A program made the position numbers. 64,000 nt of DNA from Escherichia coli. Its GTDB lineage: Bacteria > Pseudomonadota > Gammaproteobacteria > Enterobacterales > Enterobacteriaceae. Shown in pieces: positions 3,001 to 6,000 of the stretch. The stretch lies in the NCBI RefSeq assembly GCF_003019035.1, contig NZ_CP027447.1; one strand, given 5' to 3'. How positions within the stretch are numbered: the first letter of the stretch is position 1; every line of letters starts with the position of its first letter.

Positions 3001-6000
3001 TTTGCGGTAGCTTCAGCAACTTAGTCTGGAAATGATCCAGCGCGTAGCGTTTATCATCAAGCGGACGATGCTGTGCGAACGGATCTTCACCATCAAACAG
3101 CGCCACGCCCAATGCCCCTGAAACGGCAAACACGCGCGCCAGGCCAATCGCCCCCAGGGCTTCCAGCCGATCCGCATCCTGGACGATTTTAGCTTCCGTT
3201 GTTAAGGGGGCGATTTGCGCGCTGAAACTGTGAGCGGCAATGGCATGACAAACGGCCTCGATTTTCTCCGCCGGAAATTGCACGAACTCTTCACGGAGCA
3301 GGCGACGCGTCTCTTCTGCCGCCAGGATTGAAGAACGCTGCCGTTGTGGATGATCTTTCGCCAGGCTCACAATATCGTGAAAATAACAGGCGGTTAAAAT
3401 CACCAGCATATCGACATCGTCATCTGCCGCCAGCTTCTGTGCCGTAGCCCAGACGCGGCGAAAATGACATACGTCATGGGCCGCGTCCTGGTGCTGATGA
3501 TGGTTTTTTAACCAGTTTTCGAACTGTGCCTGCCAGTGTTGTAAGTCCATACGCGCTCCGTTGCCAAAGAGTCGCAACCTTAGCAGTTTTTATTCATAGC
3601 GTCTGCTACGTGCGGGACGAGGTCGGGTGTACCAGGCAATGCTGCCTAACAATGCCCCGACCAGAGCCATAAATAAAAAGCCGACCAGTGCCCCTAACCA
3701 CTTTCCCGCGGTAGAGCCTAAATCGCTTTCAAATCCCGACACGGGGGCATCGGGGATCCGGCTCATCACCCAGATGTAACGCGCCATTGCCCAGACGAAA
3801 TAGCCACACCATGTATAGAAAGCCCACAAAGCCAGTTTGCCACCAGGACTGCGAGAGAGTCTCTCTTCCATCTTTGTCGAACCGTATTCCATTTTGAGAT
3901 AACCCGGAAAATTCAGACTTAGTACTATTATGTGATAAAAGTCACATTTTTCCACATTGGATGAGCCAGTCAAGACTCAATCATTTTTTGAACAAATAGA
4001 TAATTTTTGCGCAACGGCAATAATTACCGGAAAAACAGCAATAAAGATTTATTATTATCTATGGTAATGGTTTTATTAATTCACCTAAACAATATATTAG
4101 CACCGAATTCAATTATACCTTTTTTGATTTCTGTGTCATGATAACCCCGTTATTAGCCTTTTATCGTCTTGTTTATATTTTTTGGGCCGGCATGATGCCG
4201 GCTTTTTTTATGTCTTCATTAATGTGCGCGTGATCACATCAGCCGTTTAGCGCAGCAATCATTGATACTTCCTATCTTTCCAATCAACTCATAACATATT
4301 GATATATATTCATAATCTTCATGAATATTTATATCTAGAATTCATAATTTTGAATTATATTAAATAGATTAGAAACATTTTGAAATCTTTTAAATACATT
4401 TGTTACATGTAATCCTTAAAATAAAATGAACTTCATAGAATAGTATCCAAATGTGCTTTTTTTTGGATAACGGCACTTATTGATATATTCATGAAGATTA
4501 TAATCACAAGGGAATACATAATGAAAAGAAAAGTTCTGGCAATGCTGGTCCCGGCGTTATTAGTTGCTGGCGCAGCAAATGCGGCTGAAATTTATAATAA
4601 AGATGGCAATAAAGTTGATTTCTACGGCAAGATGGTTGGCGAACGCATCTGGTCAAATACTGATGATAATAACAGCGAAAACGAAGATACATCCTATGCT
4701 CGTTTCGGTGTTAAAGGTGAAACCCAAATCACCAGCGAACTGACTGGTTTCGGTCAGTTTGAATACAACCTCGACGCCAGCAAACCTGAAGGTGAAAACC
4801 AGGAAAAAACCCGTTTAACCTTCGCCGGTTTGAAATATAACGAGTTAGGATCATTTGACTATGGCCGTAACTACGGTGTTGCTTATGATGCCGCAGCTTA
4901 TACCGATATGTTAGTTGAATGGGGTGGCGATTCCTGGGCTTCCGCTGACAACTTCATGAATGGTCGTACCAACGGTGTTGCAACCTACCGTAACTATGAT
5001 TTCTTTGGCCTGGTTGATGGTCTTGATTTTGCGATTCAGTACCAAGGCAAAAACAGCAACCGTAGCACTAAGAAACAAAATGGTGACGGCTATGCGTTGT
5101 CTGTAGACTATAACATCAATGGTTTTGGTATCGTTGGTGCATATAGCAAATCTGATCGCACCAACGATCAAGTTGCCGATGGAAACGGTTCAAATGCTGA
5201 ACTGTGGTCATTGGCTGCAAAGTATGACGCGAACAATGTCTACGCAGCTGTAATGTACGGTGAAACTCGTAATATGACTCCGGGTTCTATTGATACAGGT
5301 GTTGCCGATCGAGAAGGCAATACAATAATGCGTGATCAACTTATCAATGAAACCCAGAACTTTGAAGCGGTTGTTCAGTATCAATTCGACTTTGGTCTGC
5401 GTCCGTCCTTAGGTTATGTGTATTCTAAAGGTAAAGATATCAAAGGTGTACCTGGACATAGATATGTTGACGCTGACCGTGTGAACTACATTGAAGTTGG
5501 TACCTGGTACTACTTCAATAAGAACATGAACGTTTATACTGCATACAAATTCAACATGCTGGATAAAGATGACGCCGCCATTACTGGCGCAGCAGCTGAT
5601 GACCAGTTTGCAGTTGGTATCGTCTACCAGTTCTAATCAGCCAACGCGCCGCGGCGTGTTACTGTAAAACTTAACAATAGCCTGAGTTCGTCCCTCATCG
5701 AACTCAGGCTTTTTTATTGGCATTTCATCTCGATCTGCGGCGCACGCAATTGCCAAAGCATATCGATACAGCACCTTACCCCGCCCCCCTGGCTCAATAA
5801 AATCTACCAGCGTCTCTTCCAGCCAACACCCAAATGCATTTCTTTATAAATTTAATCTGTAACAAAACCGCTTCCCATATAGAAATATTTGCAAAAATAG
5901 TGCATGAAAAAAGCTTTTTCTCTGCCAATCCGGGATATAAATATTCATCCGTACCACAATATTCCACAGCACTAAATCTCTCCCCGCCCCCCCGGACTTC

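Follow-up and report, generated by a model that had tools for sequence, protein, structure and literature searches.

The gene at positions 4521-5636 of the Escherichia coli DNA analysed here (64,000 nucleotides, hereafter the window) probably encodes a functional, non-specific, trimeric diffusion porin of the OmpF/OmpK35 type, a reading to which we assign a probability of roughly 0.8 on the basis of sequence comparisons. It would be the family A1 allele of yedS or ompS1, an 'alternative porin' locus that is highly polymorphic. The features of the region, all on the plus strand, are as follows.

4120..4209, +, rseX small RNA gene, directly 5′ of the porin region, with its own terminator at 4184-4204 (Rfam RF01401)
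4210..4520, +, AT-rich region (26% GC), presumed promoter and 5′UTR of the porin gene (GC content, allele alignment)
4521..5636, +, CDS of the porin precursor (371 aa, stop codon not counted), a yedS/ompS1 allele of family A1, protein WP_000824355.1 in RefSeq
4521..4583, +, signal peptide of 21 aa, cleavage site A-N-A/AEIYNK (read from the ORF)
4590..5620, +, hypervariable allele block, mature porin (sliding-window identity, pairwise alignment with K-12)
4863..4976, +, constriction loop L3, residues 115-152, with the OmpK35-type motif VEWGGD (AF2 secondary structure, alignment, dN/dS)
5274..5351, +, long surface loop L6, residues 252-277, specific to A1 (alignment with other alleles and reference porins)
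5679..5710, +, hairpin followed by a T-run, resembling an intrinsic terminator, 3′ of the porin gene (hairpin scan; conserved with K-12)

The open frame of the porin is uninterrupted between an in-frame ATG, at 4491, and its stop codon, which ends at 5636. The ATG at 4521 is the start that yields the signal peptide, and it is also the PGAP/RefSeq start in the 100%-identical genome CFSAN061771; a Shine-Dalgarno sequence (AAGGGA, 4508-4513) lies 7 nt 5′ of it. The initial annotation had described an uninterrupted porin ORF with a signal peptide and a C-terminal aromatic residue, and this description was confirmed to the nucleotide: PGAP agrees on the start of the 371-aa product, the leader aligns to the leaders of the OmpK35 and OmpF precursors, with the mature start coinciding with residue 1 of the mature PDB chains, and the protein ends in VGIVYQF, the final Phe being the aromatic assembly signal. 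Residues 27-371 cover the whole Pfam Porin_1 model (PF00267, positions 1-337 of 337) with 396 bits (gathering threshold 23.7, E = 2e-118), and the AlphaFold2 (AF2) model (pLDDT 75.8) is a beta-barrel of approximately 16 strands with a helix in L3. The equivalents of OmpF K16, R42, R82, R132, D113 and E117 are conserved. The full-length profile match, the leader together with the C-terminal Phe, and the barrel with its L3 place the protein among the general bacterial porins, and an intact porin ORF as a product of chance is not viable. The protein is already catalogued in RefSeq (WP_000824355.1) and in itself an ordinary find.

In a search of the PDB, the window porin matched OmpK35 best (486 bits, E = 9e-145), followed by OmpF (360-399 bits) and OmpC (about 313-329 bits). 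With this best solved relative, OmpK35 of Klebsiella pneumoniae (PDB 9hn1, 5o77; ~65% identity of the mature proteins), it shares the VEWGGD motif in L3, the basic cluster and the C-terminal signal, whereas L1, L6 and L7 differ and L6 of the window porin is ~14 residues longer. OmpK35 is presumably the ompF-locus porin of Klebsiella; the window porin, in contrast, is encoded at the yedS locus of a species that has an ompF of its own. Its L6 shares just 2-4 of 26 positions with any other allele or reference porin compared, exceeds the L6 of subtype A2 by ~14 residues as well, and has its only related long counterpart found here in an E. fergusonii-like porin (P0021/L019). OmpF, OmpC and PhoE of E. 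coli belong to the same Pfam family and have the same fold and pore architecture, but they are 56-60% identical and encoded elsewhere. The scores against the NCBIfam models for OmpF (equivalog NF007446, 449.9 bits versus a cut-off of 583), OmpC (subfamily NF007841, 417.4 versus 484) and PhoE (equivalog NF007544, 414.4 versus 599) all lie under the cut-offs, so that no specific functional name applies to the window porin; PGAP calls it 'porin' only.

The gene order drpB-rseX-porin-hchA-hprS defines the locus. The rseX gene was recognized by Rfam RF01401 with 97.8 bits (gathering threshold 50, E = 1e-13) and is annotated at the same place in K-12, where yedS (b4496, = ompS1) occupies the porin position. 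The two genes share the site between drpB/rseX and hchA, the 5′UTR, the 21-aa leader, the 3′ flank and the terminator, and by position the window gene is therefore a yedS-locus gene. In K-12 MG1655, b4496 is annotated as a pseudogene, as the initial annotation had stated, and we could place the damage: codon 162 is an in-frame TAG, and a 1-nt deletion follows further 3′. The alignment with K-12 yedS thus places the damage on the K-12 side and leaves the window ORF intact, but it also reveals a divergent mature block, and the designation 'yedS-type' holds for the locus and fails for the mature sequence. The mature window porin is 57% identical to the repaired K-12 YedS, 56% to OmpC, 59% to OmpF, 60% to PhoE and 57% to OmpN; that is, it is no closer to K-12 YedS than to the E. 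coli paralogues and falls outside an OmpS1/YedS sequence lineage. Relative to K-12 YedS, identity is 62% in the strands and 36% in the loops, there are big indels in L4, L5 and L7, and the L3 motif is PEFGGD instead of VEWGGD.

These comparisons bear directly on the initial interpretation, in which the window gene is the undamaged ancestor of K-12 yedS and K-12 differs from it by the lesions only. The identical chromosomal position, 5′UTR and signal peptide would agree with it. However, a mature identity of 57% with many indels is as low as that to the paralogues, the nearest solved structures differ (OmpK35 for the window porin, OmpK37 for the intact K-12-type allele, which unlike the window porin is nearest to OmpK37 and OmpN), and true intact K-12-type alleles exist that are quite unlike it, encoding proteins of 395-404 aa named 'porin OmpC' by PGAP. 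The alignments with K-12 and the paralogues refute this interpretation, and we give it practically no credence. Judged by them, the window gene is a common and very different version at the yedS site and not a repaired K-12 copy. Nor is an intact gene at this locus anything unusual, since subtype A1 (the window allele, at ≥95% identity) is carried by about 902 of the 5426 complete E. coli genomes surveyed (~1 in 6), ST131 included, and each family has alleles annotated as intact genes.

In these 5426 genomes we distinguished at least four deep allele families at the yedS locus: A (1627 genomes, ~30%), B (1141, ~21%), C1, which is the K-12 type (1662, ~31%), and C2 (368, ~7%); a porin gene is kept at the locus in about 88% of the genomes. 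The mature window porin is 90% identical to A2 and 66% to family B. Identity to other E. coli alleles amounts to 13-85% per alignment block of ~60 nt within the hypervariable block and to 95-100% in the flanks, and the window and K-12 alleles have only the promoter region, 5′UTR, signal peptide and 3′ flank in common. Across all alleles compared, bases 4397-4520 are 95-100% identical; the signal peptide is the same in all E. coli alleles compared (21/21 residues), with 100% identical DNA at 4516-4575. One porin (P0011) aligned as a clean A1/B chimera. Matches named 'ompC: porin OmpC' of up to 95.7% identity had raised the idea of gene conversion with the true ompC; these are misleadingly named K-12-type alleles of the yedS locus, and their high identity is due to the shared flanks. 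The locus gene is called ompS1 in a paper on E. coli from 2009, and one source uses this name for the protein. The link to Salmonella OmpS1 consists of such source names ('outer membrane protein S1', 'yedS (ompS1)'); a homologue search with family C was dominated by E. coli entries, and Salmonella OmpS1 was not among its matches.

We tentatively regard the yedS/ompS1 site as a multi-allelic 'porin cassette', in which a fixed regulatory and leader module is combined with at least four barrel families that are 30-45% apart at the amino acid level, like separate paralogues, and recombine into mosaics, although we would put this at slightly under even odds. The polymorphism would then be old and balanced, possibly trans-species, and driven by phages, colicins or immunity. 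Such a locus would have been overlooked because K-12 carries a pseudogene there and pipelines name some alleles 'OmpC'. The deep polymorphism of the yedS locus is the sole mildly interesting point of this analysis.

The origin of the A-type barrel could also be explained by a recent horizontal transfer from a Citrobacter- or Enterobacter-like genus, in which the barrel took the place of a resident one of OmpS1 type through recombination within the conserved leader and the C-terminal codons, without any old balanced polymorphism. The syntenic porins of Citrobacter (P0008), Enterobacter hormaechei (P0012) and E. fergusonii (P0004), which are likely orthologues of family A, are placed after yedI-yedA-vsr-(dcm)-yedJ(-drpB) like the window porin and are 75-85% identical to it overall; they differ from it in their surface loops (58% identity), their short L6 and their downstream neighbours. 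For a transfer speak the identity of 87-88% to Citrobacter and Enterobacter in the strands (also found for E. fergusonii), where E. coli family B reaches 76% and K-12 YedS 62%, the sharp divergence boundaries at both edges of the mature coding block, and the GC content of the ORF (43.5%, versus 49.6% for the window). However, no donor closer than 75-85% aa identity was found, so that the event would not be recent, synonymous divergence from Citrobacter is saturated (dS about 2), and a comparably low GC content (43-46%) is common to all allele families. Families A and B also occur in E. fergusonii or E. fergusonii-like genomes with an identical leader, an observation that an old shared polymorphism would explain at least equally well, and we consider a recent transfer rather unlikely. 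Still far less probable is that the alleles are paralogues from an ancestral tandem porin pair, of which each strain kept one after a deletion between the conserved ends. Such a deletion would produce shared flanks and sharp boundaries at the leader and C-terminus, and in E. fergusonii the interval from drpB to hchA indeed contains a tandem pair of porin genes. The second of these, however, has a different leader (MKKLTVAVSAVAASILMAMSAQA), and its identity is only 64-65% with C1 and C2 and 57% with the window protein; it is therefore not a member of family C and not the missing partner. Moreover, none of the sampled E. coli genomes has two copies at the locus (median of one place per genome). 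A tandem-paralogue origin is not supported on these grounds.

An intact reading frame may also belong to a cryptic gene that is silent, has no current function and has merely been spared by mutation so far. The copies of K-12, 28RC1 and PSJ-16 are broken, the last being a frameshifted A1 allele adjoining an IS30-family transposase gene; the locus thus decays sporadically, indicating that the porin is dispensable. Furthermore, the upstream region is very AT-rich and gave no significant promoter match: a scan found 7 consensus-like sites where 8.2 were expected, and the single weak sigma-70-like site upstream of the porin (4400-4427) scored no better than chance. Almost all of 141 people lacked serum antibody to YedS, but the antigen was derived from K-12 and hence represents a different allele (PMC11242715). 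The signatures of selection argue against silence. All 8 nucleotide differences between the window gene and the copy of ST131 strain MS6198 are synonymous, the proteins being identical (WP_000824355.1), and a ratio of 8 synonymous to 0 non-synonymous changes would arise under neutrality with a probability of about 4e-6; O25:H4 strain CU568-3 and other ST131-type genomes are 99.1-99.2% identical to the window in the DNA of the allele core. Across the A2, Citrobacter and Enterobacter orthologues (dS 0.5-2), dN/dS was 0.04 in the barrel and close to zero (about 0) in L3; for the outer loops it amounted to 0.19-0.28, but saturation of dS there means that diversifying selection is not demonstrated. 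Together with the retention of the locus in most genomes, this makes a silent gene improbable. By these measures the window porin is under purifying selection, and the constraint on its barrel implies that the porin must be made and matter. To this extent there is support for the suggestion of the initial annotation that a functional extra porin may be kept in this strain, its expression being putative.

With regard to regulation, direct pairing of MicF with the translation-initiation region received no support: the duplex energy at -70 to +45 of the porin gene was -12.6 (z = +0.4 versus mononucleotide shuffles) and thus not above chance, whereas ompF as a control gave -27.4 (z = -4.5) in the same test. 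In K-12, the mRNA of 'yedS (ompS1)' decreased 2.5-fold upon sigma-E induction (PMC2731931). A surface proteome of STEC O26 lists a 'porin 50% homologous to YedS' (PMC9731836), which may mean that a non-K-12 allele has been detected as protein.

For the window porin we propose Sec-dependent export and BAM-mediated insertion via the C-terminal Phe; it would form a large channel of the OmpK35 type that admits small hydrophilic solutes, among them beta-lactams. Its level is probably low or conditional, as for other 'quiescent' porins, since a GC content of 26% upstream points to H-NS silencing and sigma-E represses the K-12 transcript. Purifying selection has preserved the barrel and constriction loop, whereas the surface loops vary and are reshuffled by recombination; the deep allele families are probably held at intermediate frequency by phages, colicins or antibodies selecting on the exposed loops.

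The window gene itself matters little, as its protein is catalogued, is present in ~1 in 6 complete E. coli genomes and is identical in ST131 MS6198. What matters is that 'yedS' denotes a set of very different porins and not one gene, so that results on carbapenem entry or antigenicity are not transferable between alleles. Warner et al. (2013, AAC 57:1935) reportedly linked an active yedS to carbapenem susceptibility, a topic known from papers citing that work. The strain is said to be a carbapenem-resistant, non-K-12 clinical isolate with an intact, expressed yedS-locus porin, which would resemble the window porin in locus and intactness. Since PGAP names K-12-type alleles 'ompC', many genomes have two 'ompC' genes, and this double naming can mislead porin-loss screens for carbapenem resistance. 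Finally, once OmpF and OmpC are lost, beta-lactam permeability could be influenced by a back-up porin of the OmpK35 type, in ST131 as well as in other lineages.

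An ORF scan of the window found a single long unbroken ORF on the plus strand, 4491..5636. Translation from the ATG at 4521, which AAGGGA (4508-4513) precedes by 7 nt, gives a protein with a classical porin leader and the C-terminus AVGIVYQF; Pfam Porin_1 spans the entire mature protein (E = 2e-118). E. coli CFSAN061771 is 100% identical to the window across the porin region, and the RefSeq CDS there, named 'porin' (WP_000824355.1), has the identical extent. Since all of this and a hairpin behind the gene agree, the coordinates and the description of an intact porin in the initial annotation are correct. 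An in-frame ATG at 4491, 30 nt 5' of 4521, would extend the protein by 10 residues, and K-12 has the same 10 codons between this ATG and the usual start; it is probably not the true start, since both the leader and the PGAP annotation start at 4521. The porin and its surroundings are as follows.

2855-3577, minus strand, yedJ
from 3590, minus strand, drpB/yedR
4120-4209, plus strand, rseX sRNA gene (Rfam, 97.8 bits) with its own terminator at 4184-4204
4521-5636, plus strand, porin
5679-5710, terminator-like hairpin 3' of the porin
6228-7079, plus strand, hchA
7187-8545, minus strand, hprS

The gene order is identical in K-12 MG1655, where the slot of the porin is annotated as 'yedS, b4496, pseudogene' and rseX likewise lies 311 nt 5' on the same strand. 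Indeed, translation of K-12 yedS runs into an in-frame TAG at codon 162 (FFG*VDG), and a frame-shifting 1-nt deletion follows beyond it, so that the initial annotation was right about yedS being a pseudogene in K-12. A stretch of about 60 nt just 5' of rseX (4039-4098) stands out: against each of the seven other strains in the comparison its identity is only 65-68%, in contrast to 83-98% on both sides; rseX may have had its promoter region replaced here. In the conserved porin-hchA spacer, which is without an annotated gene in K-12, PGAP places a 95-aa 'hypothetical protein' (5794-6081, minus strand, WP_157698605.1) that may be spurious.

We compared the DNA by pairwise alignment with K-12 and by a multi-allele sliding window, and the two agreed. 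The 5'UTR, leader and first codons (about 4397-4635) are 83-100% identical in all compared strains, with 100% at 4516-4575, and identity is back at 93-98% 3' of the stop codon, whereas about 4590-5620 is only 12-85% identical to K-12-type alleles per block of about 60 nt, with numerous indels. The mature porin shares 57% identity with repaired K-12 YedS, 56% with OmpC, 59% with OmpF, 60% with PhoE, 57% with OmpN and 65% with OmpK35. In a PDB search its closest match was OmpK35 (486 bits; OmpK37, 338; OmpC, about 313-329), whereas for an intact K-12-type allele (LD91-1, 387 aa) it was OmpK37 (513 bits; OmpK35, 403; OmpF, about 315). We therefore rejected the porin as an undamaged copy of the K-12 gene. 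The idea of a retained intact yedS thus stands as to the site and the K-12 pseudogene, but not as to the gene, which is not the K-12 one in intact form. By sequence, its lineage is OmpK35-like and not of the K-12 YedS/OmpS1 type.

The porin scores below the curated NCBIfam cut-offs of OmpF, OmpC and PhoE. It has the C-terminal Phe, VEWGGD in the constriction loop L3, alignment equivalents of OmpF K16, R42, R82, R132, D113 and E117, and an AF2 model with the expected barrel (pLDDT 75.8). We conclude that it is an ordinary general porin by family and yedS by position.

Allele families were defined from sampled matches at the same site; the leader is identical in every one of them.

Sampled alleles at the yedS site (family, strain, product, mature identity to the window porin)
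A1, window, 371 aa, 100%
A2, GCM39, 357 aa, 90%
B, E2348/69 and VL7S7, 352 aa, 66%
C1, K-12, pseudogene, 57%
C1, 28RC1, frameshifted, 58%
C1, 23CRST042, 404 aa, intact, 57%
C2, LD91-1, 387 aa, 59%

A megablast census with allele-specific cores (≥80% coverage) in 5426 complete E. coli genomes assigned 1627 to family A, 1141 to B, 1662 to C1 and 368 to C2, together 88%. About 902 of the family-A genomes carry A1 (≥95% identity), including the ST131 strains MS6198, whose protein is identical to the window porin, and O25:H4 CU568-3; 718 fall at 80-90% identity, the band that holds the sampled A2-type matches. Some alleles are mosaics. A1 and A2 barely differ in their 5' halves but diverge in their 3' halves; their proteins agree by 97% in the strands and 71% in the loops, and the A1-specific surface loop L6 (residues 252-277) matched none of the other alleles. 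In the E. coli porin P0011 (352 aa), the sequence through about residue 165 is identical to the window allele (A1) and the remainder to the E2348/69-type allele (B). Such a clean chimera is direct evidence for intragenic recombination between allele families.

The closest proteins outside E. coli are from E. fergusonii (82%), Citrobacter and Enterobacter (75% each), Leclercia (about 72%) and K. oxytoca (69%). In Citrobacter and E. hormaechei the porin lies directly 3' of yedI-yedA-vsr-dcm-yedJ, the syntenic place, and in E. fergusonii after yedJ-drpB, with the same leader as the window porin. In the barrel strands, identity reaches 87-88% with the porins of Citrobacter and Enterobacter, compared with only 76% for E. 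coli family B and 62% for K-12 YedS; the window porin is most likely orthologous to the syntenic porins of Citrobacter and Enterobacter. On an E. fergusonii-like contig (L019; 97% flank identity with E. fergusonii L020) there is a family-B-like gene with a long L6 distantly related to that of the window porin. The split between A and B is thus not confined to one species, either as an old shared polymorphism or through repeated exchange. The E. fergusonii locus (L020 5663-6772 and 7231-8688) also has a second, tandem porin gene, whose product of 369 aa begins with another leader, MKKLTVAVSAVAASILMAMSAQA, which we take to be NmpC/Lc-like. A TrkH-family gene separates its yedS-locus porin from hchA, and dcm is missing between vsr and yedJ.

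Of the 1116 nt of the ORF, 8 differ between the window and ST131 MS6198 (99.3% identity). Every one is a synonymous third-position change, for which the chance would be about 4e-6 if changes were random. Across window positions 3942-6325 (2.4 kb) the MS6198 locus is only 96.2% identical overall, the non-coding flanks thus being more diverged than the gene. Nei-Gojobori dN/dS of the window allele against A2, Citrobacter and Enterobacter came to 0.04-0.05 in the barrel, 0-0.04 in L3 and 0.19-0.28 in the outer loops, with dS = 0.5 even between A1 and A2. Such constraint is what one expects of a porin that cells produce and use, one in which changes are tolerated or favoured at the surface only. 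However, the locus decays sporadically (K-12, 28RC1, PSJ-16), A1 included, which counts against a constant importance of the porin: the A1 copy of PSJ-16 is frameshifted and adjoins an IS30-family transposase gene, with transposase fragments past its 3' end (L018 582-1642 and 1694-2332).

The 311 bp 5' of the porin have 26% GC, and the part nearest to it (4397-4520) is 95-100% identical across alleles. A promoter scan gave 7 consensus-like sites where 8.2 were expected by chance. In the study of Warner et al. 2013, YedS was reportedly expressed, influenced the susceptibility to carbapenems and was under the control of MarA and MicF; citing papers confirm the topic of that study. A duplex test at -70..+45 of the porin gave no MicF complementarity above chance, and the ompF control was clear. 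H-NS/StpA silencing of the yedS neighbourhood has been reported in the RseX paper (PMC8313858), and 'yedS (ompS1)' is among the porin genes repressed upon sigma-E induction in K-12 (PMC2731931).

PGAP names K-12-type alleles at this locus 'ompC: porin OmpC' (loci L004 1723-2886, L009 622-1836 and L008 622-1808), which explains the puzzling 'ompC' matches of the region. Many E. coli genomes therefore have two genes called ompC, a trap for automated porin-loss screens.

The intact porin as such is already known, since the exact protein is listed in RefSeq and belongs to a 90%-identity cluster of 1321 sequences, and since intact yedS genes have been published from strains other than K-12. Less familiar are the depth and balance of the yedS-site polymorphism; we found no description of them in open-access papers mentioning yedS and do not claim that they are undescribed. 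On the most far-reaching reading, to which we give slightly less than even odds (about 0.45), the porin polymorphism at the yedS site is a balanced one, cassette-like in form and perhaps shared between species.
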